Notes: generated by a model not told the origin, from the letters alone. A DNA stretch of 64,000 bases from an uncultured Pseudomonadota bacterium (GCA_963843375.1 CAWJKT010000004.1:1-64000); one strand, 5' to 3'; numbered from the stretch's first letter, positions 32,836 to 61,476 are shown. Made by a program: numbers and translations.

Positions 32836-32910
32836 GGGCGGTTAGCTCAGCGGTAGAGCACTGCTTTCACACGGCAGGGGTCACAGGTTCAAGCCCTGTA
32901 CCGCCCACCA
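32836..32910 (+). tRNA. tRNA-Val (CAC), integration target
   Basis: GGGCGGT acceptor pairs with ACCGCCC, anticodon arm CTGCT-TTCACAC-GGCAG, encoded CCA. Confidence 0.97.
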
Positions 32911-43536: not shown

Positions 43537-43591
43537 TGCCCTCGGTTTTCGTTGATTTGTAAGGGCTATCAACCCCTTTTCTCACGGCAGG
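43537..43591 (+). repeat. Degenerate, truncated copy of the att junction
   Basis: TGCCCTCG..TCGTTGATTTGTAAGGG..TTTCTCACGGCAGG versus TGCCCTCG..TCGTTGATCTGTAAGGC..TTTCACACGGCAGG. Confidence 0.7.
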
Positions 43592-43603: not shown

Positions 43604-43638
43604 GACCCCTGCTCTCGGACGGCAGGGTCGGCTCACCG
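43604..43638 (+). repeat. Site B copy 1
   Basis: GACCCCTGCT-CTCGGAC-GGCAGGGTCGGCTCACCG. Confidence 0.85.
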
Positions 43639-43659
43639 GGTCGGGCAGCCTGAGCCTAA

Positions 43660-44340
43660 TTACCTGCGCTTCCTTAATTTCCGACTTTTGTCCCTATGTT
43701 CCTTCGCATCACCTTGCGCGGCGGACCTAGCCGAAGCTGACATCACCGCCTCAGACATTCCAAGTGCTCGGGCAATCAATTCCCGCATCGCGTACAAGCG
43801 CGCCGCTTTCTCCTTCTGCGTCCAATTGAAAATCCCTTCTCCAAACAGAAAAAGAGATCCGGCCATGATGAATTGCACCGTCGAAAGCGCGTCCTTCACG
43901 TTGAAGACTCCTGCCTCTCGACCTTCCTCAACGATTCCAGCAAAAATCGGCCCCAGCACACGCACGGTTTCCACGTTGCTCCGATCATGCAACTCGCGAT
44001 TGACAGATGAGTGCAGATCCTCCACCACGCCCGCATTGCTATTCGCTAAACGCGAAAGCTCCGCAAAGATAGACTGGAACTTTTCGACCGGTCCCAGCTT
44101 TTGATCGCTGGCAATCGAACGAGACCGTTCTGCCATCGCTTCTACCAACTGCGTGGCGAGCGCTTCAAGGACCGCCTCCTTGGTGCGAAAGTAGTAATAG
44201 AACGTCCCCTTCGCGACTCCAGCCTCACGTACTATCTCTTCGACAGAGGTGTTCGAGTAACCAAGACGGCGAAAGAGCATATTTGCGATTTCCAGAATTT
44301 CGGCCCGCCGCACCGCTGGAGCTTTGACCGTTCTGCTCAT
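43660..44340 (-). CDS. TetR/AcrR family regulator
   Basis: GYSNTSVEEIVREAGVAKGTFYYYFRTKE. Confidence 0.92.
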   Translation of the reverse strand: MSRTVKAPAVRRAEILEIANMLFRRLGYSNTSVEEIVREAGVAKGTFYYYFRTKEAVLEALATQLVEAMAERSRSIASDQKLGPVEKFQSIFAELSRLANSNAGVVEDLHSSVNRELHDRSNVETVRVLGPIFAGIVEEGREAGVFNVKDALSTVQFIMAGSLFLFGEGIFNWTQKEKAARLYAMRELIARALGMSEAVMSASARSAAQGDAKEHRDKSRKLRKRR

Positions 44341-44343
44341 GGC

Positions 44344-45210
44344 CTAGCGAGTTCCCGAGAGCCGAGGAGGATTCGCCGTATGCAGGCTCGAAGTCTCGGA
44401 GAAAAACAGTTGGCGATTCTTCATGACGACGACTGCTGCGACGATGATCAAAATGCCTGTCTGAATTAGCTTAGTGCGAGGATGAGGAGAAAACAGCTCG
44501 TTGAAGAACCCGGAGGTCACGTGAAACAGTGCCGCAATCCATATGTTCCTTGCGGCCCGGGTGTAAAGCCAATTCATCAGAAAGACGACGGGAAAAATGC
44601 TGACCGGGAAGTTAACCAGCTCCCAAATTCCGGTCTTCATCAAATTGCTATGGTAGTAGCCATCGACCAGCACTAAGGGTGCATGCCAGATACCCCAAAA
44701 CGTGGAGAAAATTATGCAGGTGGCAAAGAGAGTGAACCGGCGGCGGAGAGTATCGGTGCCGTAGGTATGCCAGGCCATCTCCTCGATGACGGGTACGACG
44801 AGCAGAACTGCCCATGTCGACACCACTCCCGAAGTAAAGGACGGCGTAGTCGCGATGCGAAACTGCGAAGCGTCGTAACCAAAGAGTAGCGAGATAAAGA
44901 TGGCGAGTAGGATACTTGCCGGCATGAGCCCCAGAGCCAATAGCCAATACACCGGCTTTGCGGCAGAGATATTGCGGAGACGGCGGCAACAGTCAGACCT
45001 GAGATGCCGATCTGCACCTATCATGGTGAAGGCCACGAACATCGGCGCAACGATTCCGAGAAGTCCGAAAAGACTCAATAGAGCCGCGAGCCGCGGCGAA
45101 GGCGCCACCCGATGACTGATCCATATGGCCCCGAGCCAAAAGGCCCAAGGAATGGCGGTGGATAGGCCATAAAAGAGCCACGGTCGACGGTAATGATCCA
45201 AAGGAGCCAT
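44344..45210 (-). CDS. CPBP (CAAX/Abi) intramembrane metalloprotease
   Basis: EEMAWH, WGIWHAP, ALFH motifs, multiple TM helices. Confidence 0.85.
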   Translation of the reverse strand: MAPLDHYRRPWLFYGLSTAIPWAFWLGAIWISHRVAPSPRLAALLSLFGLLGIVAPMFVAFTMIGADRHLRSDCCRRLRNISAAKPVYWLLALGLMPASILLAIFISLLFGYDASQFRIATTPSFTSGVVSTWAVLLVVPVIEEMAWHTYGTDTLRRRFTLFATCIIFSTFWGIWHAPLVLVDGYYHSNLMKTGIWELVNFPVSIFPVVFLMNWLYTRAARNIWIAALFHVTSGFFNELFSPHPRTKLIQTGILIIVAAVVVMKNRQLFFSETSSLHTANPPRLSGTR

Positions 45211-45257
45211 CTGTGAACGTCATAAGCATGGCGCTACGGCCAGCAGCCACCCTATCA

Positions 45258-45274
45258 ACTGACCGACGGTCAGT
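45258..45274. promoter_or_regulatory. TetR-type operator upstream of CPBP-tetR operon
   Basis: Palindrome ACTGACCG-A-CGGTCAGT. Confidence 0.65.
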
Positions 45275-45392
45275 CAATTCTGCGGCGCGATTGGATGATT
45301 ATTTGCAATGCCAGGAGTGGGCCGGCGATTAACCATTCGGTCTCACCGCATTGACTTCCCGGGCGCTATCCAGGCGGGCGCAGTCGATAAAG

Positions 45393-45935
45393 TTACTTGT
45401 ATGGCTGCCCGATCATCAGGCTAGGGTGATAGGGATCAATTGAAACCGAACCCGCTTCGAGATCGAGTTCAAGAATGTAATGAGACCCCGACTTTGCATT
45501 GAAGGCACCTATTTTTCTCCAGGTCGTTCCTTCCTCGTTCGCATTGCGCGCCCAGTCCCACGCACCAGCGGGCGCAGATCCGGTGTCGACCAGCCGACCC
45601 GACTGCCGCAATTTCCATTTGACTGCGCCGAGCGGGGGCGCTGCGGCTCTGCAGCGTTCGGCCGTCACGGGCGCTGAGGTGAGAGCCAAGCAGGTCGAAC
45701 CGTCTAATCGCCGGGTCCCTACACCGATCATGATTCGATAATCTTGCGTATCTGGAATTTGAAATTCGCGAGTCTGAAAATATCCGGTAGACGGCGACAG
45801 CGGTACCTGAAATGGTGCATAGAAGCGACGTTCTTGATACGTCATGGCGGCGGTCACGGCTGCGATGGCAGCCACGGCGATGAGGGCGCGTGTGATAGGG
45901 GTCTTATGGTTCAGGGCCCGGTCAATTAATGACAT
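45393..45935 (-). CDS. Hypothetical exported protein
   Basis: N-terminal hydrophobic anchor, beta-rich body. Confidence 0.6.
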   Translation of the reverse strand: MSLIDRALNHKTPITRALIAVAAIAAVTAAMTYQERRFYAPFQVPLSPSTGYFQTREFQIPDTQDYRIMIGVGTRRLDGSTCLALTSAPVTAERCRAAAPPLGAVKWKLRQSGRLVDTGSAPAGAWDWARNANEEGTTWRKIGAFNAKSGSHYILELDLEAGSVSIDPYHPSLMIGQPYK

Positions 45936-46088
45936 GCGATGTGTGCCTCTTAGGACGCCATCCAGGTGACGAAGTTTGGGTCAAAATTGCTCGTTGTCTA
46001 AGTGCTGACGGGCGTCATGGCCGTCTCCGTCCGAGATGCTCGCTCTTGCCTGTCATTGATCAGGCACGGTCAGTCGACGTTGACGGGA

Positions 46089-46508
46089 CTAAAAGCACGC
46101 ACCCGCAAGTCCGCAACCTGCCGCAAGCAGCGCGAATGGGCATAGGCACGAGATCACCATGCCGCTGGCGAAGGAGAGCCAACGACCCGCCCGGGCGTTG
46201 ATCACGAAATGTCGTGATATCTGTGCGACCGCAGCGCAGGCAAGAAAGGGCCAGACAAGGAAACCTAGGAGCAGGATAGATCCCCGATACGCGAGAAACC
46301 GCTGTAAGGCAGATTCCGGCGGACCTCCGGTCCGAACAAGCGCATAAACCAAAAGACCGACGCAAACTAATGTGAGGATCGCAGCGATCAGGAGCACGCC
46401 GCCGTGCAGCCGTCGTCGAGCAGCCCACTGTGCCAGTACCCAGAGGACGCCGGCGCTGGCCGCCACCCAAACTGTATAGAACCAAGCAAGCTGCGTCAGG
46501 CTGGTCAT
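46089..46508 (-). CDS. Hypothetical 4-TM membrane protein
   Basis: Four hydrophobic segments. Confidence 0.6.
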   Translation of the reverse strand: MTSLTQLAWFYTVWVAASAGVLWVLAQWAARRRLHGGVLLIAAILTLVCVGLLVYALVRTGGPPESALQRFLAYRGSILLLGFLVWPFLACAAVAQISRHFVINARAGRWLSFASGMVISCLCPFALLAAGCGLAGACF

Positions 46509-46690
46509 CGTTAGGAGGCCAGATCTGTCCGTATCAACGATCTGTTTGGTGCCGGTTCAAATTGGCGATCGGTGCTGCTATTCTACTAATTAGAACATCG
46601 ATTCTGTTTTCTCGTCAAGATGTGTGATGGGTGATTACCCATGATTGATCCCCTGCCGCTTTTTCCACCAATGCAACACCTGCGGTCAAC

Positions 46691-46990
46691 GTGCGAACTC
46701 TCTCCATAGCATCGATGTCGTTGACGATCTTGATCGCGACCGGGTCAATCGCGGCGAGCGTGACCAGCGTCAAAACGGAGCCTTCTGGGACTTTCAACAG
46801 AAAGACGCAGTATAGAGTCGAGTGCGCGGCTGAGGATGAAACGAGGGCTCCGTGCAAGGCTGCACTCACGAATACGTGCCCCAATGGACACACGATGACC
46901 GGTTATGACGACCAAGTGGTACTAACCGGTCCCCCGAATGGTCCGTATAAGGTCGCCCCGCGATATCTTTACTTCGTCTGCACGCGGTAG
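46691..46990 (+). CDS. Small secreted Cys-containing hypothetical protein
   Basis: Signal peptide, four Cys, CPNG motif. Confidence 0.55.
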   Translation: MRTLSIASMSLTILIATGSIAASVTSVKTEPSGTFNRKTQYRVECAAEDETRAPCKAALTNTCPNGHTMTGYDDQVVLTGPPNGPYKVAPRYLYFVCTR

Positions 46991-47179
46991 CTGGTCCGCC
47001 GACCGAAAAAGGCGCTCAGCGATGGAAGATACCTGGCGGGAGAAGCGGTGATTGAGGTCATACGACTTGCTGATCCGGCGCGGACGCAGACGTTACTTGC
47101 GCCGAATCGCCGCTTGTCGTGTGAGGTTCCTGAAGTGGCAATTGACCACCGACGACGGAACAGTTGGTAGGGGAATAGA

Positions 47180-47863
47180 ATGGCGATGACGCAGCAAGCG
47201 CGGCTTATATTTCTGGTGCTGATGCTGGGTCCCCCTACGCAGGCCACATTCGCACAAGGCAATTCGGCATTCGCCAGAGTGGTTTCTGATCCTCGCGAAC
47301 AAGAGATGGTTATTAGCGCCGCTAAACGCTCGAACGTTGTCGTCGAGAGTCCGTGCGATGATGCACATTACAGCATCGCCAATCAGTTCTCGATCTTCGA
47401 GCCGCTCATGTTTGACGACGCTGGGACTCTGCGCTCCGGTATTTGGAAGCAGGTGATCAATTATGCAGGTTGCGGAGCTACGCGAATTTTGAACGTACTG
47501 GTGTCGGTAGCAGCTGGATCGCGTCCGAATGCCCGTCCATTGTTGCCGGGCACTACGCACGCCGACCCCCAATTGCAGATCGACGTGTTCAGATCGCCAG
47601 CCATGCAGATACAAATACAGCGCTGGCGCGACCCCACTTGTACCAAGGTCTACGTCGCGGACACCGCGTTCGTGAATCGGGAGGCCGAAACTCTTCCGGG
47701 AGCAAAAGAATCGAGCTGGCGCGAGGTGTGGACCGTGGCTGCGTGCGATCGCAAGGAATCCATGCCGGTAACTTTTGCGCCTGATTCGACTGGCTCGTCC
47801 TTTACGCTAACGCCAGGCTCGACGGACCAGGATAAGCCTGGCAACTCTGTAGGTCGGCCCTAA
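47180..47863 (+). CDS. Hypothetical secreted protein
   Basis: Signal peptide, LLPGTTHADPQLQ, WREVWTVAAC. Confidence 0.65.
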   Translation: MAMTQQARLIFLVLMLGPPTQATFAQGNSAFARVVSDPREQEMVISAAKRSNVVVESPCDDAHYSIANQFSIFEPLMFDDAGTLRSGIWKQVINYAGCGATRILNVLVSVAAGSRPNARPLLPGTTHADPQLQIDVFRSPAMQIQIQRWRDPTCTKVYVADTAFVNREAETLPGAKESSWREVWTVAACDRKESMPVTFAPDSTGSSFTLTPGSTDQDKPGNSVGRP

Positions 47864-47924
47864 CAAGGGATCTACTGCTTTTCTGAAGGCGGACGCTGGC
47901 GACTGGGGTCACGGTCTATGTCGT

Positions 47925-48096
47925 TGGGACAATCTGGGACAGTCAGCCCATGACGCCAAATGACATCGAATGACATCCCGTGACGCCAAGTGACTGTTGC
48001 GCTTGGCCCTACGCCTCGCATATGGTTGATCTGTAAGGCCCTGACCACCGTTTCACACGGCAGGGGTCACAGGTTCAAGCCCTGTACCGCCCACCA
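47925..48096 (+). repeat. att junction copy 1 (arm sites + TGAC decamers + tRNA-Val 3' 46 bp at 48051-48096)
   Basis: Direct sequence comparison with the other copies and the tRNA. Confidence 0.95.
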
Positions 48097-48370
48097 TCCA
48101 ACACTTTGAAAACAAATGGTTTTCCGCGTTTGTGGGCCAAAACCTTGAACCCAGAAACAGGGATTTGCGAGAATTCCAAGGTCAACCACGTACCGCAACT
48201 CTCTGGTAGGTGCTTCGGCATTCGAGCACGTCCCACTACTCCCGACGGGATTCGGTTCGCGATCCTCAGGACACTCCTGGCAGGTGAACTCCCGCCAAAA
48301 CAGGCGATCACGCGAACACTCTCACCGAAAGAAGTTGCCTTTCATTCTCCTCGATGCATACTGAATGCAT

Positions 48371-48646
48371 ATGGAGATCGAGTGGGATGCAGCCAAGGCA
48401 GCCACCAACTTTACGAAGCATGGCGTCCGCTTCGAGGAAGCCGCAACTACACTCCTTGACCCAATGGCACTCGCCCAAGAAGACACGATCTCTCGAGGCG
48501 AGGCCCGCTGGATACTGATCGGCATGAGCGCCAGCACGCGATTGTTGACCGTCGTTTACACATTGCGGAAAGAGGACACGATTCGTCTCATCTCCGCCCG
48601 TAAGACCACACGCAAAGAGGCCGCTGACTATGCGCAAGCAGTATGA
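48371..48646 (+). CDS. brnT: BrnT family toxin
   Basis: EWDAAKAATNFTKHGVRFEEA..IRLISARK. Confidence 0.92.
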   Translation: MEIEWDAAKAATNFTKHGVRFEEAATTLLDPMALAQEDTISRGEARWILIGMSASTRLLTVVYTLRKEDTIRLISARKTTRKEAADYAQAV

Positions 48647-48896
48647 TTTCTCGAAGGCGAAGCGCGCCAAGGATGTCCCACACCTCGCGCGCCTCCAGGC
48701 ACAGGCCAAGGGTAAGACCCGCATCACCATCATGCTGGACAACGACCTGCTGATGACTTTTCGCGCCAAGGCGGAATCAGAGGGAACGGGATACCAGACA
48801 CTAATCAATCAGGCATTGCGTCGGGCTACCGGACCTGACTCGGTGGATGAGGCAACCTTGCGCCGTATTCTCCGCGAGGAATTAAAGGCTGGCTGA
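48630..48896 (+). CDS. brnA: BrnA family antitoxin
   Basis: YDFSKA, KTRITIMLD..F, GYQTLINQALR. Confidence 0.9.
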   Translation: MRKQYDFSKAKRAKDVPHLARLQAQAKGKTRITIMLDNDLLMTFRAKAESEGTGYQTLINQALRRATGPDSVDEATLRRILREELKAG

Positions 48897-49090
48897 GTCA
48901 GTGCGCCATCGATACGCCCGGTGCTTTGTGATGGCCGCTTGCCTCGGGGCGGCCCCGATAATCCAAAGTGGACATGGAGCGGGTAATGACGACTCGCGAC
49001 TCGTCGAGATGAAACCTGAGTAGCTGGCGCCTGCGAGTCAGAAACGTACCTTGGCATGCCATAACTTTCACACAGCCGGAATCGGTTTAC

Positions 49091-49126
49091 GACCCCTGCT
49101 CTCGGACGGCAGGGGCGGCCCAACCG
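49091..49126 (+). repeat. Site B copy 2
   Basis: GACCCCTGCT-CTCGGAC-GGCAGGGGCGGCCCAACCG, preceded by TTTCACAC at 49066. Confidence 0.85.
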
Positions 49127-49224
49127 AGAAACTTGCGATTGTTACTGGCGCTCGGAAAGAATAGCCTCAACCCGTCACTCAGACAGTCACAATTGATTCC
49201 ACGCGCAGGTCATTCAAGGATCGC

Positions 49225-49728
49225 ATGAAGTCGCTTCTGGCAATCGGACTGGCGGTGCTCGCCTCAGGAGCTCAGGTCAGCCTAGCGACGACTCCCGAGT
49301 GCGAGGGCTCGCCGTTCACTCTGCAGGGTCAGTACTTAGAAATCGTGAAAAGCGCCGTCGCGCAATCCCCGATCGCATTTCAGCGCGAAGTAGTCGCCGT
49401 AGATCCACCAATTCCGAGTGCAGCCACACCTCTGCCGAGCGTCATGCAGTGGTCAAAATTTGCAGTTGATCAGAACATTTCCTTTAGAGTGCTGCGTCAG
49501 TGGAAGGGACCATATCACGTCGGTGAAGTCGTAAATCTCACTGTTAGAGTCGCGCAAGTGTGTGGTGGCATTCCTTGCATACCTACATTTAAGATTGGCG
49601 ATGTCACGCTTTTGCTATCTCTCAAATCTTTGCCAAGTTATTCTGAAGGCTGCTGGGTGTACGAAGGTGTGGCGATTAACAGCGTGCTATCAGTGCCCAC
49701 GGCTCTGACATCCGGAAGCCGCCACTGA
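49225..49728 (+). CDS. Hypothetical secreted protein
   Basis: Signal peptide, FRVLRQWKG..C..F..G pattern reminiscent of TIMP/NTR-like OB folds. Confidence 0.6.
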   Translation: MKSLLAIGLAVLASGAQVSLATTPECEGSPFTLQGQYLEIVKSAVAQSPIAFQREVVAVDPPIPSAATPLPSVMQWSKFAVDQNISFRVLRQWKGPYHVGEVVNLTVRVAQVCGGIPCIPTFKIGDVTLLLSLKSLPSYSEGCWVYEGVAINSVLSVPTALTSGSRH

Positions 49729-49861
49729 GGGGACGCGGCTTAAGTAGGCTGCCGCCGGAGTTCCACCATACCGTTCTCAACGAATAGTGCTTATCACCAG
49801 TCGCCGCTTGAAGTGAGATTGCCGTAAAGGGTTGAGTTTCCACAACGCAGGGACCGCTGCC

Positions 49862-50892
49862 ATGCCGTCACGCTCGATCCAATGGACGCTCCTTCTCTGG
49901 CTCTACGTCATCATCCCTGGGTACGCCGCAGCAATCGAACCTGTCCGTGCTGGACAAGATTCCTTCGTATCACGAGCAATCTTCTTCAATTCGCAGTTGT
50001 GGATCCTAACCGACGCCGGGCTGCTTTCGAGCATCACGGAGGGCGCCGACCAACAAGTCGACGTTCCTCTTCCTGCGCCCGCTCTCGATCTGTGGACTCA
50101 GGATGGCGCACCTGCGGTTCTTACCGGCGTGCGCAACGGTTCATCGTGGACTGTGCGTCAATGGAGTCATGGTGAGTGGAGCGCTACCGCCACCGTTTCA
50201 GTGAATGCAGACAGATTTATCGGCGTTGCTCCCTCACCAGGAGCCGTCACGATCCTTACCTCGAATCGGCTGATCGAAATTGTCGGTGGAAGTCAACGAA
50301 GCCTGGCACTGGTATGGCCCGCCAAGCCACTTGGTGCAGTCACGTCCGTCGCAGCAATCCGCGGCAGCCTGCTCGTTGGATTCAATGCGGGTGAGTGGGG
50401 CGGTGGTTTGAGGCGGATTGGCAGACCAAACAATCAGATCTCCATTGTCGAAAACAGGAGCGGAGATTCAATCTGCGGTGGACTGTTGAACACAGACTGC
50501 GACCCGGTAAATGGAATCGCCGTTGAACCATGGCAGAAGGATTGTGCGGCGATCACCATTGGCCTTGTTCATTTCATGACCCGCGGCGGCATCGTTGAGG
50601 TTTGCGGAGATACGGTGAAGCGCCTGTACAGCCGCTCGTCCGGGGGCGACCGGATCTCCACCGTACCGTTCTTCGGAATCGTGACAGCGAATTCCAATCT
50701 CGCGGCCGTGGGTGCCGATGGCATTTATAAGGTCGCGCCTGACGGCGTTGAAAAGTGAGTCCACTTCCCCAGTTTCAGCGAATTGGGCACGTGTCAGTAA
50801 GCTTCGCGGTACCTCACGTGGTTTTGCTCCTGACTGACGTCAATCAGCGGCGTAGTGTCAGCGGCAGCGTCCCAATGATTGTGGCCAGGTAA
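49862..50892 (+). CDS. Hypothetical secreted beta-rich protein; frameshift at the A-run near 50750
   Basis: Signal peptide, GFNAGEWGGGL; reading continues in another frame to TAA at 50892. Confidence 0.6.
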
Positions 50893-50964
50893 AGCGCGCG
50901 TCTTCGTCGCAGCAGAGCCGACGTTCTTAGCCGATGATTTTGGTTCAAGAGCCATCTTTGTCGC

Positions 50965-51135
50965 TGGGACAATTTGGGACAGTCAGCTCGTGACGCCGAA
51001 TGACATCGAATTACATCGCGTGACGCCAAGTGACTGTTGCGCTTGGCCCACGCCTCGCATATGGTTGATCTGTAAGGCCCCGACCACCGTTTCACACGGC
51101 AGGGGTCACAGGTTCAAGCCCTGTACCGCCCACCA
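50965..51135 (+). repeat. att junction copy 2 (tRNA part 51090-51135)
   Basis: Direct sequence comparison. Confidence 0.95.
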
Positions 51136-51426
51136 TAAAAAATCCCTTGATTGTCAGGTAATTGCCGCGCAATTGGGGCAGCATAGGCCCGCCTCGGTTT
51201 TGGCCGTACGGACACCAGTACGAATTTTTTCGGGCAATTCGTAGAGTTCCGCGCCCCAAAATTGAGCGAGCCAGTGGCGCCAATGCGGACGCGCTCACCG
51301 TCCCCACGGGGACCCATGAACTCGCGCGCACGTCCCTGCCTAGAGATCGATCGATTCGGTTTCGATTCTCGCGCAAGCGAGAAGCCCGCCCAGAGGCGAC
51401 CCGAGGGGCGAAATTAGTTCGCCAAT

Positions 51427-52617: not shown

Positions 52618-52822
52618 GGGGCGATATTATGCATCTATTACGGAGTTTACAAGAAAACCCTAAACTCACTAATATCCGTACCTTCGACTACCGAGCGTAA
52701 CCTACGTCTTCTCTGTTGCGCATAGTAGTTAAACGGGCGCCCCGGCGTGCAGGCGGCGCCCGATGCAGACGGGCGCAAAACCGAGATCCTTATCAGTTAC
52801 TGCTCATTATGGTTTGCCTCGG

Positions 52823-52993
52823 TGGGACAATCTGGGACAGCCAGCCGATGACGCCAAATGACCTAGAATTACGTCGCGTGACGCTAAGTGACTGTTGCTC
52901 TTGGCACTCCCCTCGCATATCGTTGATTGGTAACGCCCTGACCACCGTTTCACACGGCAGGGGTCACAGGTTCAAGCCCTGTACCGCCCACCA
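52823..52993 (+). repeat. att junction copy 3 (tRNA part 52948-52993)
   Basis: Direct sequence comparison. Confidence 0.95.
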
Positions 52994-53119
52994 TAGATTC
53001 AAGCGCTTATAGGCGCTTCTTCATAGCTCTTCACGCTCTTCGATCGAATTTGGGACAGTCTGCCGCACATGCCGCAGACGATTCGAACGGCCATGGACAG
53101 TCGCAAGGGATGATGGGCA

Positions 53120-53530: not shown

Positions 53531-54946
53531 CCCCAAGCGACGCCGCAGGTTGGTGAACACCGTCGAGTCCGGTGGGACGGGCATCATGGAGCTGTCGCGC
53601 TCGAACTGCGCAATGAGGGCCTCAACCATTTCACGCCCATCAGCGTTTCCAACCGCCTCGAGCGGCGTTTTGTTATTGAGGGCTGGCAATGCCACCTCCG
53701 GCCAGTTCTCATAGTGACGACGTTGGAGTTGCTCAAGCTTTGCGCGCACCTCGGGCTGCTTAAGAAGCTCTTCCTGTTCGGCATTACGGGGCGTGAATCC
53801 GGCGCCAGCCCCAGGGAGGCTTGCCGCGCGCGTGACATCGACGGGGTGCTTGCGCGTTCTCAAATAGCGCGCTTTCAAACCGGAAGTTTTCTCCAGTAGC
53901 TTGCGGAACGTGCTCGCACGGGCCGCGGAATTGACCTCCACTTTCAGTTTACCCTCCACAATGTGAAGTTGTCCGAGCACGACTGTTTCAAGTTCGTGCT
54001 TCGGATGGTTGTGCCGGATCCAGGGGATCTGCGCCTCGATCACGGCACCCTTGGCACTGAACTTCGCTTCCGCCAGAAGTTCCTCGCGGGTGCTGCCAAG
54101 CGCGAGGGAACTGAGTGCATCGAAGGCCGCTTGCGCGGAATCGATCTCGAAGTACAGCGTGCGCGGCTCGATCGGTTCACCATCGGTGTTGTGGAGCTTG
54201 GGCAGCGGTGGATTGAGGTAGGCGTCCGCGAGAGAGAAGTACAACGTGCGTAGCGCGAGGTCGCTCGAGTGCTCGAGCTCCGGACGGGTGCGGACCTGGA
54301 TTAGGTGGATCTTGTAGCTCGGGGGAAAACTGAAAGGGGCAAGACCCTCGACCATCGCGATCCCGGAGAGCGCTACGATCTGCCCGAAAATGATGTCGCC
54401 CCGGGCGAGTGTGGCTGAAGCCGAGCGTTCACGCACGTTGAACTTGGCGCAGGTCAGGACGTCTCGCGTGGTGAAGCCCACTCCGGGTTCGCATTCGCAG
54501 ATCTCATGGAAGCCAAAGGGTGCTATGAGGCAGGCTTCGAGATAGCGCTGCAGCAGTGGATGAAGGCGCCCGGCTCTGCGGTCGAGATAGGCGCGCGAGG
54601 GCGGGACAGCGTAGAGCGTCGCGTCGGAGATGACGTTGCCTTTGAGCTTCTGCGGCGACCAGACGTGGAAGAGCCATGCGAAGAAAAGCTCGGCGTTGGG
54701 CTCGCTTTGGACGAACTCCTCGCTCTTGCCCATCGTGAATTCGAACCATGCCTGCTGGATGGCGTCCACGCCGTAGCACTTCGCGATGAAGTGCAGCATG
54801 TCGCCCGCGTAGCCGTCGATGGCCGCGCGTACGCGTCGCCAGGTCTGTTCGCCGAGTTCGGCCACCGTGGCCGACTCTGAGAGACAACAATACTTGTACT
54901 TCTTGCCGCTGCCGCAAGGGCACGCATCGTTGCGTCCGGGCTTCAT
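53525..54946 (-). CDS. SEC-C motif protein with C-terminal MbcA/ParS-like motif
   Basis: GRNDACPCGSGKKYKYCC; W..VALPALNNKTPLEAV. Confidence 0.8.
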   Translation of the reverse strand: MKPGRNDACPCGSGKKYKYCCLSESATVAELGEQTWRRVRAAIDGYAGDMLHFIAKCYGVDAIQQAWFEFTMGKSEEFVQSEPNAELFFAWLFHVWSPQKLKGNVISDATLYAVPPSRAYLDRRAGRLHPLLQRYLEACLIAPFGFHEICECEPGVGFTTRDVLTCAKFNVRERSASATLARGDIIFGQIVALSGIAMVEGLAPFSFPPSYKIHLIQVRTRPELEHSSDLALRTLYFSLADAYLNPPLPKLHNTDGEPIEPRTLYFEIDSAQAAFDALSSLALGSTREELLAEAKFSAKGAVIEAQIPWIRHNHPKHELETVVLGQLHIVEGKLKVEVNSAARASTFRKLLEKTSGLKARYLRTRKHPVDVTRAASLPGAGAGFTPRNAEQEELLKQPEVRAKLEQLQRRHYENWPEVALPALNNKTPLEAVGNADGREMVEALIAQFERDSSMMPVPPDSTVFTNLRRRLGL

Positions 54947-55098
54947 GAGGGCATTGTGGCACGAGCAGCGGGCTTGGCGCGCGCAGCTCGCGCGGTGCGC
55001 AATGCGCCACAGAGCATGCCCGCCTTCGACCTCAGGGTTTGTGAGGGCGTTCCCGCCGAGTGATTGACAGCCACTGGGCAACTGGTAATACTATTGGT

Positions 55099-55335
55099 AT
55101 GAAAGTCGCCGTCTCCATACCCGACGAAGTCTTCAGCGAAGCCGAGGATCTGGCGAAACGGCTAAAGGCTTCGCGCAGCGAGATCTACAGCCGTGCACTC
55201 GGTGAGTTTCTGGGCCGGCATGCGCCCGATCGCGTGACGGCCGCCATGAACAACGTCATCGCCAACGTCGGCGAGAAATCCGAGGCCTTCAACCGGCGCG
55301 CGGCGCGCGGTGTGCTGCGGAAGGTGGAGTGGTAA
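55099..55335 (+). CDS. RHH antitoxin
   Basis: MKVAVSIPDEVF..SRSEIYSRAL; overlaps toxin gene. Confidence 0.85.
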   Translation: MKVAVSIPDEVFSEAEDLAKRLKASRSEIYSRALGEFLGRHAPDRVTAAMNNVIANVGEKSEAFNRRAARGVLRKVEW

Positions 55336-55673
55336 TCGAACAGGCGGAAGTTTGGTGGGCCGACCTCGATGAGCCCACTGGGTCCGAACCCGGATACCGC
55401 CGGCCCGTCGTCGTCGTCCAGGGCAACGCGCTTAACCGCAGTCGCATCGGCACCGCCGTGTGCGTTCCGCTGACCAGTAATCTCAGATGGGCCGATGCCC
55501 CCGGCAACGTCCTGTTGCCAAGTCACGAAACGGGGTTAGCGCAGGACTCGGTCGCAAACGTGTCGCTGATCGTCGCCCTGGACAAGCAGCAGCTCACCGA
55601 GCGCGTGCGCAAGATCCCACGCCGCCGATTTGAACTCATTCTCGCGGGAATCGATACGATCCTCGGGCGGTAG
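55329..55673 (+). CDS. PemK/MazF family toxin
   Basis: GSEPGYRRPVVVVQ..N, VPLTSN, DSVANVS. Confidence 0.92.
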   Translation: MVIEQAEVWWADLDEPTGSEPGYRRPVVVVQGNALNRSRIGTAVCVPLTSNLRWADAPGNVLLPSHETGLAQDSVANVSLIVALDKQQLTERVRKIPRRRFELILAGIDTILGR

Positions 55674-55679
55674 GCCGCC

Positions 55680-55844
55680 ATGAAAGCGAAAACGCGAGCT
55701 AAGTCGGAGCGACCTCAAAGCTTCACCGAAGGCATTGAACGGGCACTGCGGCGCGCTGCCAGAGATGCGCGCAAGACTGCTCGCATATACGGCACACCCC
55801 TTTACGTTTGGCAGAACGGCAAGGTGGTCGCCAAGAAACCATAA
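55680..55844 (+). CDS. 54-aa basic protein not in the ORF track
   Basis: Hand translation MKAKTRAKSERPQSFTEGIERALRRAARDARKTARIYGTPLYVWQNGKVVAKKP, 6 bp after toxin stop. Confidence 0.65.
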   Translation: MKAKTRAKSERPQSFTEGIERALRRAARDARKTARIYGTPLYVWQNGKVVAKKP

Positions 55845-55874
55845 AGACGACCCTACCCGTCACGGTTCGATCGC

Positions 55875-56045
55875 TGGGACAATCTGGGACAGTCAGACCA
55901 TGACGCCAAATGACATCGAATGACATCGCGTGACGCTAAGTGACTGTTGCGCTTGACCCTGCCCTCGCATATCGTTGATCTGTAAGGCCCTGACATCCGT
56001 TTCACACGGCAGGGGTCACAGGTTCAAGCCCTGTACCGCCCACCA
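55875..56045 (+). repeat. att junction copy 4 (tRNA part 56000-56045)
   Basis: Direct sequence comparison. Confidence 0.95.
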
Positions 56046-56125
56046 TCTAAAAGCCAGCTAGAACAATCACTTATAGTGTGACCCCGAGCTAGCTGAATTG
56101 GCCTTTCGGAGGGGTTTTGGGACAG

Positions 56126-56161
56126 TACCCAAATCGGGTATGATTCTACCCAATATGGGTA
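56126..56161. promoter_or_regulatory. Tandem palindromic operators at the MNT gene start
   Basis: TACCCAAATCGGGTA and TACCCAATATGGGTA. Confidence 0.6.
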
Positions 56162-56781
56162 AGAGCCAAGCCAAGCCCCGCCCCACTGATGGCGCAGCCA
56201 GTCTGGTGGATGCGCTGTTTTCGACAGTAAAGCAGCGCGTGCTGGGGCTGCTATTCGGCCAACCGGATCGCAGCTTCTATACCGGCGAACTCATCCACCT
56301 TGTCGATGCTGGATCCGGAGCGGTGCAGCGTGAGATTGCCCGCTTGGAAAAAAGCGGCCTTATCACCATGCGCCGCGTGGGAACTCAGAAGCACTACCAA
56401 GCGAATCCTGGTTCTCCACTTTTCGAAGAACTGCGAAGCATCACCCGCAAGACGGTGGGGCTTGCCGATCCACTGCGCGTTGCGTTGACCCCGCTGACGA
56501 AGCAGATCTCCGCCGCATTCGTCTATGGGTCAGTTGCAAAGCGTCGCGACGCCGCAGCCAGCGATATCGACTTGATGGTCTTGAGCGATAGCCTTGCGTA
56601 CAGTGAAATCTACAGCCTTCTTGAACCTGTAAGTGAACAACTGGGCCGCACCGTAAATCCGACGGTCTACAGCGCCGCGGATTGGTCCAAGCGCGCGCGA
56701 AACGGGAATGCCTTTGTGAGCCGAGTGCTGGCGCAACCCAAGCTATGGATCATCGGGTCCGAGAATGACCTCCCTCCTTGA
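56155..56781 (+). CDS. HTH + minimal nucleotidyltransferase (MNT) protein
   Basis: N-terminal winged HTH; FVYGSVAK..SDIDLMV. Confidence 0.88.
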   Translation: MGKSQAKPRPTDGAASLVDALFSTVKQRVLGLLFGQPDRSFYTGELIHLVDAGSGAVQREIARLEKSGLITMRRVGTQKHYQANPGSPLFEELRSITRKTVGLADPLRVALTPLTKQISAAFVYGSVAKRRDAAASDIDLMVLSDSLAYSEIYSLLEPVSEQLGRTVNPTVYSAADWSKRARNGNAFVSRVLAQPKLWIIGSENDLPP

Positions 56782-57187
56782 ACGGCTAACAGGTGCTGGA
56801 AAGCCCTGGGCGGCGGAGCCGCCGGACGCGAAGGAATTCGAGGGGCTCAAGCACTCAGCGCTCGCACGCTTGAAGGATGCGGCGAACCCAGTAAACGCGC
56901 TGGAGAGCCGCTTTGATCTCGCCTACAACGCCGCCCACGGACTGTGTTTGGCCGCACTCCGTCACAAAGGATTTCGGGCGCATCACCGTTACATCGTCTT
57001 TCAGGCGTTGCCACACGCTTTGGGATTAGGTCCGGAGGTCTGGCGCGTGCTCGACAAGAGTCATCAGATCCGCAATCTCGGAGAATATGAAGGCGATCTG
57101 AACATCGATGAGCGGCTTGTTGCCGATCTCATCACCGCGTGCCGTGTCGTCGCCGAAAAGGTCGAAGGTCTCCAACGCCCCCCGTGA
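56765..57187 (+). CDS. HEPN-like partner of MNT
   Basis: FDLAYNAAH, IRNLGEY (RNxxxY variant); overlaps MNT gene. Confidence 0.75.
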   Translation: MTSLLERLTGAGKPWAAEPPDAKEFEGLKHSALARLKDAANPVNALESRFDLAYNAAHGLCLAALRHKGFRAHHRYIVFQALPHALGLGPEVWRVLDKSHQIRNLGEYEGDLNIDERLVADLITACRVVAEKVEGLQRPP

Positions 57188-57232
57188 CTACTGAACTGAT
57201 CGCATCAGCCCTTCTCCGGTCGACAAGCTAAT

Positions 57233-57267
57233 GTTCCCTGCTCTCGGACGGCGGGGGCGGCTCATCC
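57233..57267 (+). repeat. Site B copy 3
   Basis: GTTCCCTGCT-CTCGGAC-GGCGGGGGCGGCTCATCC. Confidence 0.8.
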
Positions 57268-57337
57268 AAGGATGCCTCCTTTTCGGTGCTTGCCGGTGCC
57301 TGCTCTGGATATCTTGGCAGATTGCCGGCGATGGGTG

Positions 57338-58228
57338 TCATGGTGCTCTCAGCAGCGTCGGGGTGTTACGCGCACGCATCAGCTGCTCGACGTTCGGCGC
57401 GTTCAAGCCGTCGGACCGGCCTTTGAAATAGGTCCGTTGTGCAAGTTCCGGCGAAAAGTGCTCCGTCTCGGCAAAGCCGGCGGTGCGCAACATGGCCGCC
57501 ATCTCCTCGGGCGTGAAGAAGGTGGCAAAGTGGGCGCCGGTCGCGGTGGAGATTCGCTTGCCTGTCTCGATCATTTCGGGCGACGGCGGGACGAATGTCA
57601 GTACAAGCTCTGAGCCGGGTGCGAGGTGTGCGGCCCAATTCAACGTCGCGTCGATCGCTTCGCGCGTCAAATACTGGGTGACGCCGAGCCAAGACAGGAA
57701 CGCCCTCTCATCGGACCGAAACTTTGCGCCCGCAAGCGCAGTCTCAATCGACGTAGTCTCGAAGTCGCAAGCCGCGAAGCGTAGGTTCTTGGGCGCCTTG
57801 ATCCCGAGTTCGGCAAGGCGCTTACGCTTCCACTCTTGTGCGCGCGCGGTATCCACCTCGAAAACAGTAAGGTTGAGTGGAGTCGCCGCATGCCGAAGCG
57901 CAAAACTGTCGAGGCCGGCGCCGAGAATTACCTATTGCCTGATTCCGCGCTCGCGGGCGGCCTCGAGACAATCTTCCGTATAGCGGCTCCTAAGGGCCCA
58001 TGCGGCCGAGATGGCCTTGTTTCGGGTCGGCACTGGTACTCCAGGCATGGGCCCGCGTACGATGCCCTCGGTGACGCCCAACAATCGCGCGGCGAAATCG
58101 TCCTTGAATACCTTGGGTTCACCGTCCACTAATAGGTGACGGGCGCGCATGAGCGCTGCACCGACCGCCGTCATGTCAACGCCCTCGGGCGGCGACCAAA
58201 TGGGTTGCTCCATGTGCGTGAACATCAA
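57338..58228 (-). pseudogene. Class I SAM methyltransferase (LCM-like) with one in-frame TAG at 57932-57934
   Basis: RGIRQ*VILGAGLDSFA, SWLGVTQYL; both ORFs are in the same frame. Confidence 0.8.
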
Positions 58229-58271
58229 TAACTGCCCCAGTGAGCCAGCTGCTTCGCCTCGATGCGGGGAC

Positions 58272-58784
58272 TCAGCGCGTGCGCGCGATGACTTCGCGGA
58301 AACGAACCTCCTCCAGGCGCATCAGCGCATTGAGGCCGGGCATCCCCTCGGGGCCGAAGGTTCGCAGGTACGCCGGTAACAGCTGCGGCGTGGTGAACTC
58401 GACGAGCTGCGTTCCTTCGAGCCAAACGTTGATCACTTCGAACTGGCCATTGTCGCAGTGCCCGCTCGGCCAGCCTTCGCGGCGCGCGATTTCGTGGATG
58501 TGTTCCTCGGGCAGTTTGGCCATGAAGAGCCCATGGAAGCCGTTGCGCTCCGGTGCCGACTCCGCGTGCGGCATTTCCGTGTAAGCACCTGGGCCCGGCG
58601 CGTATGTGATGCCCCACGGCTCGAGCGAGATCATGGTGCCACGATCGTCGCCGCAACAAACGAAGAGCGCGCCTTTGTTGAACGGCGGAGATGGAGCCGC
58701 GACGACGATGGCGTCCAAGATCTTTGCCAAGACACGGGCCACGCGCTCGGGATCGTGTGCATTGAATGAAAGGTGATATAGCAT
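58272..58784 (-). CDS. VOC/glyoxalase-like protein
   Basis: HLSFNAHDPERVARVLA, IARREGW, FEVINVWLEG..LVEF. Confidence 0.65.
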   Translation of the reverse strand: MLYHLSFNAHDPERVARVLAKILDAIVVAAPSPPFNKGALFVCCGDDRGTMISLEPWGITYAPGPGAYTEMPHAESAPERNGFHGLFMAKLPEEHIHEIARREGWPSGHCDNGQFEVINVWLEGTQLVEFTTPQLLPAYLRTFGPEGMPGLNALMRLEEVRFREVIARTR

Positions 58785-58809
58785 CTCTTTCTCCCTGCTC
58801 GTTGCAGCC

Positions 58810-59433
58810 TCAGCGTATCTTCTGCGTCCGGCGGCGGAGGCCTTCGGCGAGCGCCGAGAGAGCCTGCTCGACGACAGCCGAGGCCTCGGCGGCATCCATC
58901 CCCCAGAACGTGCGCAGCATCTGCCACGAGGGAGCCGAATAGAGGACCTGCGCCGCGGCGGCGGCACGGTGCAAGATGCGCGCATCAAGCCCGGGCACGG
59001 CAGCGTCGACGCAGCGGAGCATCATCTTGCGGCGTGCGTCGTTCCCGCGCAGGCGCAGCCGCATACCCTGGCGCGACGACAACATCGCATCCACCATCGC
59101 AGTATTTGCCTCGAATCCGGCAAAGGACCTCTTCATGTTTGCCACGAGCTCAGCAAGCGTCTGCGCGTCGAACGTGCCCGGACCGGAGACGTGCTCCTCG
59201 TGCGACCACCAGAAGGCGTCCTCCAGATCCTCCTTCGTCGCGAAGTTGCGGTAGACCGTCCGCTCTTGTACCCCTGCGGCGTGCGCGACCGCGGCGAACG
59301 TGAGCTCCTTCCCCACGGCCACGAGATCGCTGCATGCGTCGAGAATGCGCTCCCTCGTGTCGGAGCGCTGCTGGTCGCGAAGCGGCGAGTGATAACTGCG
59401 CTTAACGGCGGCCCTAGCGCGCTTCGAATTCAT
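58810..59433 (-). CDS. TetR/AcrR family regulator
   Basis: RSYHSPLR..TRERILDA..AVAHAAGVQERTVYRNFATKEDL. Confidence 0.9.
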   Translation of the reverse strand: MNSKRARAAVKRSYHSPLRDQQRSDTRERILDACSDLVAVGKELTFAAVAHAAGVQERTVYRNFATKEDLEDAFWWSHEEHVSGPGTFDAQTLAELVANMKRSFAGFEANTAMVDAMLSSRQGMRLRLRGNDARRKMMLRCVDAAVPGLDARILHRAAAAAQVLYSAPSWQMLRTFWGMDAAEASAVVEQALSALAEGLRRRTQKIR

Positions 59434-59757
59434 GGCAGTAATAATGACATGAATTGGAGTGACAGGCAAGCGTGCGCTGCGTAGTCCTTCGCAGTTCGAG
59501 TGATCGACTGTGACCAACGTCCATTGCTTCTGGCCGAAGGTCGCCGTTTCAGGTCTACCGTTGGAACGACGCAAAGGTTGACTGAGAGTCGACCGGTAGC
59601 AGCCATCCTTGCCATTCGGCCCAGGCCCAACCGAATGACGGATTTCGGAAGACCCATCTGACAGCAGGCCGCCACCTTAAGGCCCGCCACCGAGGTCCTG
59701 GCCCTTTCCCTTCAAACAGTCTATTTAAACCCAACCGTGGTTAGGTTATTATAGTCT

Positions 59758-60006
59758 TTGCCAACGGTTCTTCGCTTCGGCCGTGTTCGAGTCATGATCT
59801 ACACGAACGATCATCGTCCCGCGCATGTCCACGTTTGGGAGGGCTCACGGCAGGCGGTGTTCAATTTGAACTGTCCAAGCGGACCGATCGAACTGCGGGA
59901 GAACTTTGGGTTTTCCTGGCCGGATGTAAACCGCTTGGCCAGATCGCTGAAAGTCCACGTGCAAACGTTGTGTGCAGCCTGGAGGACGATTCATGGCAAT
60001 TACTAA
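59758..60006 (+). CDS. DUF4160 family protein
   Basis: MPTVLR..IYTNDHRPAHVHV. Confidence 0.85.
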   Translation: MPTVLRFGRVRVMIYTNDHRPAHVHVWEGSRQAVFNLNCPSGPIELRENFGFSWPDVNRLARSLKVHVQTLCAAWRTIHGNY

Positions 60007-60406
60007 GGAGCAATTTAAGGCGGCAAACGAGCGCGGTGCGGCGGCGATCAGTCGCGGACCGATTGCGCGAGCGGCTCGCTATGATTCACGACGTGGTCTG
60101 ATCGTGATTACGCTCAACGGCGGTTGCGAGTTTGCCTTCCCGGTGGCGCTGGCCGAAGGGCTGGCAGGCGCGCCCCGATCCAAGTTGACGAAAATCAAGA
60201 TTAGCCCGAACGGGCTAGGTCTGCGTTGGCCGCTGCTGGATGCGGATTTGTATGTGCCAGGGCTCATAGAAGGCGCCTTCGGTTCACATCGGTGGATGCA
60301 ACAGATCGGCAAACTCGGTGGTGCGAGCCGCAGTTCGATCAAGGCGAAAGCTTCTCGCGAAAACGGGAAGCGCGGCGGGCGTCCCAAAGAAGGAGTAGCC
60401 GCTTAG
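59993..60406 (+). CDS. DUF2442 family protein
   Basis: GLRWPLLDADLYVPGL, KAKASRENGKRGGRPK. Confidence 0.85.
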   Translation: MAITKEQFKAANERGAAAISRGPIARAARYDSRRGLIVITLNGGCEFAFPVALAEGLAGAPRSKLTKIKISPNGLGLRWPLLDADLYVPGLIEGAFGSHRWMQQIGKLGGASRSSIKAKASRENGKRGGRPKEGVAA

Positions 60407-60515
60407 CGCATCGATTGGAATGAAACGCGCCCGTATGTCCTGCCCGTCAGCTTTGGAGCCATTTCCCAGCAGCCATAGTGGGTCACAACCGGTCCACGAG
60501 ATTTCGCGGGTCTTC

Positions 60516-60688
60516 TGGGACAATCTGGGACAGTCAGCCCATGACGCCGAATGACACAGAATTACGACGCGTGACGCCAAGTGACTGTTGCGAATGGCCC
60601 GCGCCCCTCGCATATCGTTGATCTGTAAGGCCCTGACAACCGTTTCACACGGCAGGGGTCACAGGTTCAAGCCCGGTACCGCCCACCA
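60516..60688 (+). repeat. att junction copy 5 (tRNA part 60643-60688, one mismatch), followed by an IHF consensus at 60689-60701
   Basis: Direct sequence comparison; TATCAACCGCTTA matches WATCAANNNNTTR. Confidence 0.95.
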
Positions 60689-60780
60689 TATCAACCGCTT
60701 ACGGTCTGCGTTGCCGGTGCCTTGCTTCAAGGGTCGTCGCGCTCTTGCTACGATGTGCTACAAGTGCTACCGTCGCGGCC

Positions 60781-61032
60781 ATGAAGAGCAGAGTCATCAC
60801 ACAGCGGGAGCTTCGCAATCAATCCGCAGCTGTGCTTCGCGAGGTGGAAGCGGGCCGAACGATTGTCGTGACACGCAACGGTACGCCCGTCGGGGAATTG
60901 CGGCCGATCCGCAGGCACCGCTTTGTGGCTCGCGCCGCCATTGCTGACGCAGCAGCGCGCGCACCTCGGATTGACGCCGGTCGCTTTCGTGCAGACTTGG
61001 ACGCAGTGATCAATCCGCATGTCGATGACTGA
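60781..61032 (+). CDS. Phd/YefM family antitoxin
   Basis: ITQRELRN..VLREVEAG..VVTRNGTPV; TGCTAC repeats upstream. Confidence 0.9.
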   Translation: MKSRVITQRELRNQSAAVLREVEAGRTIVVTRNGTPVGELRPIRRHRFVARAAIADAAARAPRIDAGRFRADLDAVINPHVDD

Positions 61033-61426
61033 ACCGACTCGCGGCGTTCTCGATACTTCAGTCGTGATCGATCACGATGCAATCGATCCCAGTCTGCTAC
61101 CGGACGAATCGGCGATTTCCGCCGTAACACTCGCAGAACTCGCCGCTGGTCCCCACGCTACCGAAAACAAGGATGAACGAGCTCGACGCCAGGACCGATT
61201 GCAGTGGGCTACTGCAACTTGGGATCCGCTGCCATTTGATGCGGAATCGGCTCGCATGTACGGCAGGATGTTCGCGGCTGCGCGAGCCGCAGGCCAGTCA
61301 AGCCGTACGCGCCTTGCAGACTTGCTCATTGCTTCCACAGCCGCTGCCAATGGACTGCCGGTTTACACGCGCAACCCTTCGGATTTTGAGGCGCTGAAGC
61401 GCATCCTGAAGATCATCAGCATCTAG
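61025..61426 (+). CDS. vapC: VapC / PIN-domain toxin
   Basis: VLDTSVVI, TLAEL, DLLIASTA, YTRNPSDF. Confidence 0.92.
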   Translation: MTEPTRGVLDTSVVIDHDAIDPSLLPDESAISAVTLAELAAGPHATENKDERARRQDRLQWATATWDPLPFDAESARMYGRMFAAARAAGQSSRTRLADLLIASTAAANGLPVYTRNPSDFEALKRILKIISI

Positions 61427-61441
61427 AGCGAATCGCCCTCC

Positions 61442-61476
61442 AAGCCCTGCTCTCGGACGGCAGAGTTGGCTCACCG
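61442..61476 (+). repeat. Site B copy 4
   Basis: AAGCCCTGCT-CTCGGAC-GGCAGAGTTGGCTCACCG. Confidence 0.8.

Follow-up and report, generated by a model that had tools for sequence, protein, structure and literature searches.

A short inverted repeat that recurs in an array of integrated units stacked behind a tRNA-Val gene of a soil bacterium may be a second core-type site of the integrase encoded in this array, and perhaps a heterospecific crossover site. We judge this reading, which rests on sequence comparison, the most likely of those considered and assign it a probability of roughly 0.4. The repeat, here named site B, was found in the first 64 kb of contig C4 (CAWJKT010000004.1:1-64000; hereafter the window), which belongs to a 4.05-Mb assembly of 32 contigs (80% complete) of an uncultured member of Pseudomonadota. 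The arms of B match the anticodon stem of tRNA-Val(CAC) and hence the core of the attachment (att) site, and they surround a different 7-bp centre, CTCGGAC.

Exact matching identified four copies of the 17-mer CCCTGCTCTCGGACGGC in the window, all on the + strand (43607, 49094, 57236 and 61445; copies B1 to B4), and no other exact match in the assembly, where 18 matches with up to three mismatches were detected and the runner-up, with two mismatches, lies on the - strand at C4:519242. The 15-mer CTGCTCTCGGACGGC likewise has four exact matches, all on the + strand (43609, 49096, 57238 and 61447), compared with a mean of 0.35 in shuffled sequence, in which four matches were reached in none of 100 shuffles. 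The alignment of the four copies yields the consensus CCCTGCT-CTCGGAC-GGC(A/G)G followed by GGC(T/C)CA. The four direct-orientation copies and the consensus given in a preliminary description of the window are thus confirmed, and the genome-wide count shows the motif to be specific to the island. A REP (repetitive extragenic palindromic) or other dispersed repeat was rejected on the same ground, as all four copies lie within 18 kb of one island.

The tRNA-Val(CAC) gene reads CACTGCT-TTCACAC-GGCAGGGGTC, with CTGCT-TTCACAC-GGCAG as its anticodon arm. The centre of site B differs from the anticodon loop, which is also the att overlap, at three of the seven positions and shares the other four. GCAGGGGTC is present on the + strand in tRNA-Val and on the - strand at 43604-43612 and 49091-49099; the left arm of B1 and B2 is therefore the exact reverse complement of the tRNA right arm. 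Both relationships had been proposed earlier and hold. Over 9 bases, the arm agrees exactly with the target of the integrase itself, and CTGCT-N7-GGCAG occurs just five times in the genome, namely in the tRNA, in three B copies and at one other position. B has GACCCCTGC as its left arm and GCAGGG(G)TC as its right arm, the latter matching the att right arm. B1, B2 and a fifth copy, found in a related metagenome locus (L097, see below), fit the pattern GACCCCTGC(T)-CTCGGAC-(G)GCAGGG(G)TC, in which inverted arms surround a 7-bp centre, and B3 and B4 retain the left arm and the centre with weaker right arms. Over the five copies, 22 of 45 alignment columns are invariant and form one block consisting of the left arm, the centre and GGC, while the right arm varies; conservation is asymmetric across the site and falls on the left arm, the centre and the tail GGCYCA. 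All four window copies have the same centre, and one base of it is changed in L097 (CTCGAAC).

Sequence rather than hairpin is conserved in site B. DNA hairpin energies are -10.3 kcal/mol for both B1 and B2, -8.2 for the L097 copy, and -4.0 and -4.7 for B3 and B4, respectively; the last two values are at shuffle level (z = +0.58 and +0.23). Together with the alignment, these energies bear out the earlier statement that the centre stays invariant while the hairpin decays in copies 3 and 4. No covariation above shuffles was detected among the five sequences (73% of cells paired versus 71%), and the RNA folds of the five modules revealed no common structure.

The integrase gene begins 113 nt after tRNA-Val. 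Its product is 47-52% identical to integrases of Ralstonia phages, has HP1 integrase (1AIH, 2.3e-11) as its best solved relative, and does not reach the cut-off of either the Xer or the integron models (23.1 bits versus a cut-off of 265 for the integron-integrase model). It is followed downstream by genes for a MobP-type relaxase, a NikA-like protein and an excisionase-like helix-turn-helix (HTH) protein (36801-37142). Except for a Mutator-family transposase, the open reading frames (ORFs) up to 96 kb yielded no further recombinase. A 47-nt 3' part of tRNA-Val that spans the anticodon loop through CCA is repeated on the + strand at positions 48050, 51089, 52947, 55999, 60642, 69032 (degenerate) and 90502, and all seven copies are preceded by a conserved arm of ~135 bp (P arm), which brings the whole att to ~180 bp. 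The P arm contains a TGGGACA repeat pair at its outer end and a run of TGAC motifs at ~10-bp spacing. The presence of att copies at every joint together with a single integrase indicates a tandem array composed of one integrative mobilisable element followed by integrase-less cassettes; direct att repeats at the joints and units without an integrase are the features of an array of the cis-mobilizable element (CIME) type. The same tRNA-Val core is targeted elsewhere in this integrase family: the Ralstonia phage Anchaing, whose integrase is 48% identical, has TTCACACGGCAGGGGTCACAGGTTCAA..CCA immediately in front of the integrase gene, and GGGACA repeats flank this core as they do in the P arms and the P' arm of the array. 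Paired (T)GGGACA repeats were seen on both sides of the att core, in the mobilisable element (32992-33009), in the P arms (e.g. 47925-47941) and in Anchaing (L124:2190-2420), and are likely to be arm-type integrase sites common to the family.

The preliminary description treated site B as a free-standing 35-mer, a view that had to be revised, because B turned out to be the core of a module of ~120 bp. A 21-mer from the P arm retrieved 10 metagenome loci, nine of which are true relatives, and one of these nine, L097, carries the B variant with the altered centre. In L097, a full P arm (3657-3817; 82-88% identical to the window P arms) leads into GTTTCACACGGCcAGGaTC, and GACCCCTGCTCTCGaACGGCAGGGTCGGCTtA, the B variant, begins 14 bases after it; this places B 28 nt right of an att core with its P arm but without the tRNA 3' remainder. 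The sequence to the left of B1 consists of a P-arm remnant and TTTCtCACGGCAGG (nhmmer with the P-arm profile, E = 3.9e-4 in 100 kb and 1.6e-6 in four upstream stretches) and matches the L097 composite over 85 bp at 76% identity by blastn. A mutated att core, TTTCACACaGCcGG, is also present to the left of B2 (49066-49079). The att core therefore lies 28 nt left of B in three of the five copies (L097, B1 and B2). In all three of these composites the core is mutated, and at B3 and B4 it is missing, whereas all five copies of B are intact. The stretch between core and B (AATC..TTACGAC) matches a motif found after CCA at many ends of ordinary cassettes and in the phage attP region. On the other side of B, ~75 nt are conserved among L097, B2 and B4, and the B4 module matches L097 over 96 bp at 72% identity (blastn). 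A profile of the whole module detected only these five copies in the genome and the metagenome loci searched, and the right end of every unit with a B is formed by a P arm and att of the ordinary kind.

From the layout of L097 and the decayed core remains at B1 and B2, it follows that B marks the left (P'-side) end of one cassette subclass. The module with B at its core belongs to the left, P'-side end of cassettes from which the tRNA-restoring segment has been lost; these 'class-B' cassettes are without the tRNA 3' remainder carried by the ordinary 'class-A' cassettes. With this segment dropped, class-B cassettes could insert harmlessly only into existing arrays. A second, different tRNA-Val(CAC) gene is present at C4:195405 besides that at C4:32836, so that damage to the target by a directly inserted class-B cassette might be tolerated. 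The P arm to the left of B1 is identical to the L097 composite at 39 of 57 positions and to ordinary P arms at 40-44 of 57. As it is no closer to the P arm of L097 than to ordinary ones, the composite looks like a normal att junction, and the idea of a separate 'class-B P arm' lineage was dropped.

Outside this genome, no exact site B was recovered. An exact 19-mer of B had 67 single matches in 185,579 species genomes, none of them with the GGCYCA tail or an upstream att core, and 60 were located inside open frames, including one conserved Brevundimonas gene; given the lack of the tail and the predominance of open frames, these matches are attributable to chance. The extended B pattern had no match in metagenome contigs. 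In viral contigs, an 18-mer gave six chance matches, and neither a 21-mer allowing for the L097 variant nor the P arm gave any. Neither the L097 composite nor the B4 module matched a plasmid collection. Among 60 relatives, two genomes (G034 and G060) contained one match each, with one mismatch, and the flanks in a genome of the same genus (G001) are too diverged to align. The integrase had one match in the phylum (34% identical), and of its 15 relatives in viral contigs, 14 have no tRNA in the locus and one has a tRNA-Leu.

The structure of B corresponds to that of a core-type site, since it has inverted arms around a centre of 6-8 bp and these arms match the core of the cognate enzyme. We infer that the integrase may bind B and exchange strands there. 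B would then represent an idealised pair of predicted core-type binding sites around the 7-bp centre CTCGGAC; the integrase would recombine B with B and not B with att, because the overlaps differ (CTCGGAC versus TTCACAC), and the segments between att and B, comprising toxin-antitoxin (TA) units and cargo, would be reassorted without loss. We consider it doubtful that the array goes as far as to have one integrase acting on two incompatible site classes, with att/B-flanked units being swapped between arrays by double crossover and never excisable alone; such an exchange would explain the presence of three unrelated two-gene units in one att-B slot. The uniformity of the centre within the genome and its change in L097 are what matching of partners within a genome predicts, as seen with one outgroup. 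That B outlasts the neighbouring att core also speaks in favour of a crossover role. The principle that a changed 7-bp overlap isolates a set of partners, put forward in the preliminary description, agrees with the account of lox spacer variants in PMC4176322, and according to the same account one arm and the spacer are conserved in the sfx sites of Rci. For the integrase of ICEAfe1, which targets an anticodon loop, a 19-bp anticodon-loop segment is described as sufficient as a target (10.1101/2020.11.02.365908). With two inverted arms equal to those of att around its 7-bp centre, B is shaped like such a minimal target.

Several observations weigh against the reading of B as a crossover site. 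In B3 (GGCGGGGGC) and B4 (GGCAGAGTT), the right arm reproduces the core site poorly, and no P arm was found on the left of B2, B3 or B4. Integrases of this type have arm sites and, as in lambda-type systems, need a partner that bears an arm. The match of the right flank of B to GGGACA repeats is weak; GGGACA-like repeats there were recovered by a loose hand-made pattern only, and in L097 only, and were rejected. The comparative base for B is limited to five copies; it was found in one of the nine related metagenome pieces, in none of 98 other genomes of the phylum (as judged by the P arm, which had no match in them), and not in the one phage relative that was scanned whole. The fixed 28-nt spacing from the att core in three of the five copies fits an accessory role equally well.

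Direct signs of exchange at B were sought in relatives and in metagenome contigs. Synteny breaks located exactly at CTCGGAC had been predicted, and this expectation failed in the loci where it could be examined: two related loci (L099 and L101) share the gene to the left of B3 (88-93% identity) and diverge at ~57190, which is ~45 nt to the left of the B3 inverted repeat, with no B at the junction. This position indicates that the mosaicism there did not arise through B. In contigs of four soil runs (X1, X2, X3 and X5) covering 42500-62499, which are short and have a depth of ~1-8, no contig joining two B sites and hence no B x B product was observed, a result that at this depth neither shows nor excludes recombination at B. 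The breaks beside B3 weigh against exchange at B, and so, within that limit of depth, does the lack of an observed junction.

The best-surviving alternative, which we hold to be possible if on the unlikely side, is that B serves as an accessory integrase-binding element of the P' arm and was never a crossover site. In this case, the perfect inverted pair 14 nt past the att core would recruit or position the integrase for strand exchange at that core, or hold it there to damp excision. The att core of class-B cassettes has lost its strong right arm (GGCAGG is followed by AATC and not by GGTCA). The constant 28-nt offset in L097, B1 and B2 and the homology of the core-to-B segment (AATC..TTACGAC) to the class-A left-end and phage attP motif point in the same direction, as does the conservation to the right of B, by which the whole becomes attP-sized with the crossover core midway. 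The resemblance of the B1 composite to a normal att junction is also consistent with this role. However, B3 and B4 keep B unchanged without a nearby att core or P arm, the att cores beside B are mutated wherever they are present, and an accessory element offers no reason for an invariant 7-bp centre. Even if B is only an accessory binding site, it still defines a cassette class without the tRNA-restoring segment.

It is improbable that B is an operator or binding site of another island protein, such as the excisionase-like HTH protein or the DUF4160/DUF2442 pair, its likeness to the att arms being inherited from a duplicated core and not functional. The asymmetric conservation of B would suit such a binder, and B and the att core beside it do look like tandem paralogues, with identical arms and agreement at four of the seven centre bases. 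However, no candidate protein accompanies every B cassette, the cargo differs in all five, and the 9-base arm match to the integrase's target is exact. Even less probable is that B acts as RNA, as a 3'-end stem-loop or terminator of the upstream two-gene operons. The location of the four window copies, 15-195 nt after a + strand operon and without an open frame across ±150 nt, would fit, 6-7 bp stems are possible in B1, B2 and L097, and the single change in the B3 right arm gives a G-U-compatible pair. Nevertheless, the pairing of B3 and B4 is at shuffle level without covariation, and B in L097 comes after a P arm and not after an operon. In addition, an intrinsic terminator was rejected, as the tail GGCTCACCG contains no T tract and the terminator scan makes no call, and no Rfam match for B was obtained at E up to 5. 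Finally, we regard it as very improbable that a duplicated att core left B behind as a relic without function, which looks conserved only because its copies are young. The origin of B in att-like sequence is clear, and remnants of att parts occur commonly across the array; however, outside the invariant 17-mer the four copies are down to ~58-85% identity or are no longer recognisably similar, and decay has affected the att cores and P arms beside B but not B itself.

Other types of element were examined and rejected. The tRNA-Pro(CGG) and tRNA-Arg(CCG) of the genome are unrelated to B, and the idea of a fragment of another tRNA was dropped. An integron attC site has boxes in the arrangement R''/L''-L'/R' with a GTTRRRY consensus; no GTT box is present in B, and the integrase scores far below the integron model, as given above. 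Membership in a shufflon set of sfx sites, which alternate or are inverted in orientation, was rejected because all four window copies share the + strand, and B in L097 is oriented with respect to att as they are. As for an origin of transfer (oriT), a better candidate is TATCCTGC, which adjoins the mobilisation genes and has only CCTGC in common with B. This candidate nick region, judged by the nick consensus, occupies 36708-36715 and closely precedes the genes for the NikA-like protein and the MobP-type relaxase.

The coordinates of the features are listed in Table 1.

Table 1. Features of the tRNA-Val array in the window
Feature	Coordinates	Strand	Evidence or remarks
tRNA-Val(CAC), integration target	32836..32910	+	ARAGORN; Rfam tRNA 66.9 bits
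Tyrosine integrase, 338 aa	33023..34039	+	Pfam Phage_integrase 3.5e-29
Decayed P-arm end (last ~50 nt) and mutated att core (TTTCtCAC GGCAGG), directly left of B1	43539..43591	+	
Site B copy 1	43604..43638	+	GACCCCTGCT-CTCGGAC-GGCAGGGTC-GGCTCA
Class-A att copy, ~135-bp P arm and 47-nt tRNA part (48050)	47910..48097	+	
BrnT/BrnA toxin-antitoxin pair, between att 48050 and B2	48365..48896	+	Pfam BrnT_toxin 1.2e-26, BrnA_antitoxin 7.7e-13
Site B module 2	49065..49192	+	Inverted repeat 49091-49125, then conserved right flank; nhmmer, B-module profile, 2.6e-29
Class-A att copy (tRNA part 51089)	50953..51136	+	
Class-A att copy (tRNA part 52947)	52807..52994	+	
Class-A att copy (tRNA part 55999)	55866..56046	+	
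Nucleotidyltransferase and partner (PADLOC PDC-M05A/B), between att 55999 and B3	56098..57187	+	Pfam Polbeta; PADLOC 5.3e-84, 2.6e-56
Site B module 3	57210..57328	+	Inverted repeat 57233-57267; nhmmer 3.1e-20
Class-A att copy (tRNA part 60642)	60508..60689	+	
Small ORF and PIN-domain (VapC-like) gene, between att 60642 and B4	60588..61426	+	Pfam PIN 8.6e-10
Site B module 4	61416..61545	+	Inverted repeat 61442-61476; nhmmer 1e-27

The junctions at B2, B3 and B4 share the same order, consisting of P arm, att core, tRNA part, two-gene unit, B and right flank, and the two-gene units belong to mutually unrelated TA or defence types. At B4, the PIN-domain gene itself occupies 61019-61426, and the start of the small ORF preceding it is uncertain because its call overlaps the att copy. 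B1 comes after the mobilisable element itself, and the two ORFs upstream of it have no family match. In L097, B directly follows P arm and core with no genes between. The earlier observation that three copies of B are positioned after a TA pair is valid for B2, B3 and B4, in the sense of two-gene units, and does not extend to a general rule, L097 being without a TA pair. Two routes could have led to this layout. Small class-A TA cassettes could have entered the att core before B and later lost their own P arm, traces of which are present at B2 and at neither B3 nor B4; or the units could have been exchanged via att and B together. To the right of B3, a - strand ORF (57338-57856) has a match to the leucine carboxyl methyltransferase (LCM) family that is confined to the C-terminal part of the profile (positions 113-186 of 187); the ORF is probably a truncated or frameshifted cargo gene.

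If a second site incompatible with att exists, it would provide the array with integron-like modularity and with a way to tie addiction modules to cargo. In recombinase-mediated cassette exchange, a segment between two incompatible sites is exchangeable and not excisable; on the crossover reading, B and att would represent a natural counterpart of this procedure, that is, a natural example of the heterospecific-site trick of genome engineering. Chromosomal integrons hold promoter-poor small cassettes, many of them TA pairs, that are served by one tyrosine recombinase and have a conserved end site per cassette. In contrast, the sites described here are derived from a tRNA and are not attC-like, B having no GTTRRRY box.

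Integrase-less cassette stacks behind tRNA genes are turning up widely. In the CIME accretion at tRNA genes described for ICESt1/ICESt3 (PMC5704250), an integrase/relaxase element by the tRNA is likewise followed by att-bounded units without recombination genes, with att repeated at every joint. The present array differs from that model in its at least seven joints and one-sided ~135-bp att arm, and in its subclass with the extra core-like site B and without the tRNA part; that model is not known to include a second site. The tycheposons of Prochlorococcus (10.1101/2020.12.28.424599) are similar in being tyrosine-recombinase elements at tRNA genes with flanking partial tRNAs and remnants, and in that successive integrations push older elements along, whereas the host and the integrase differ and a second site class is not known from them. 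As described in PMC4176322, loxP, loxN and lox2272 share the same arms, and the changed spacer isolates the partner set for one enzyme; these variants are engineered, whereas the att/B pair would be natural and is putative. The sfx sites treated in PMC4176322 are comparable to B in that many sites serve one tyrosine recombinase and the spacer and one arm are conserved while the other arm is variable. However, in the construct presented there successive sites alternate in orientation and Rci inverts without excising, whereas the B copies are all direct; moreover, the enzyme here is a phage-type tRNA integrase. In the Acinetobacter pdif modules (PMC6449649), short recombinase sites also bound small accessory modules, some of them toxin-antitoxin, but those are described as XerC/XerD sites on plasmids, which B does not resemble, located as it is in a chromosomal tRNA array. 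The attP region of Anchaing (MT740728.1) resembles the array in having the tRNA-Val core by its integrase gene, GGGACA repeats to either side of it, and the motif AAATCA..CTTA after the tRNA end. In the whole Anchaing record, a search for a B-like second inverted repeat gave nine matches, one of which is the att core, versus eight for a control pattern, and is not beyond chance.

The joints in related loci and soil contigs give some indication of how such arrays change. In L099 (1-3086), a homologue of 57000-57189, which covers the end of the gene to the left of B3, is followed by homologues of 59905-60407 and then of 53529-55679. On the reverse strand of L101 (11227-12308), the CcdAB-side region (homologue of C4:89755-90398) abuts PDC-M05B (homologue of 56766-57190). 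These joints use neither att nor B, which implies that the arrays also evolve by deletions or illegitimate joins. Two further joints were detected in the soil runs, each in a single contig of low depth: 57251->57359 in run X2 (depth 2, 20-letter side, five letters ambiguous) and 60604->55962 in run X5 (82-letter side, 34 letters ambiguous since the P arms are alike). The X5 contig (55962-56389 with 60523-60604) links the P arm close to 60.6 kb with the att at 56.0 kb. It could reflect a circle or a tandem copy of the 56.0-60.6 kb unit, consisting of the TA unit and the B3 cassette, or the order in another strain.

The array as a whole extends from 32836 through the end of the window at 64000 to C4:90548 and comprises the integrase/relaxase element followed by at least six att-bounded units without an integrase. 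TA-like pairs (DUF4160/DUF2442, AbiEii, MazEF-like and CcdB) are located at many unit ends. In relatives, other cassette orders are found behind the same tRNA flank: a homologue of cassette 3 is first in L095 and a homologue of cassette 4 is first in L101. A Mutator-family (IS256-like) transposase gene is located at C4:65000-66259 (L103:1000-2259) beside a truncated P arm (C4:66374-66405) and is adjoined by duplicated pieces of cassette 4 (55678-55896 and 53047-53444); this arrangement looks like a cassette joint broken by an insertion sequence.

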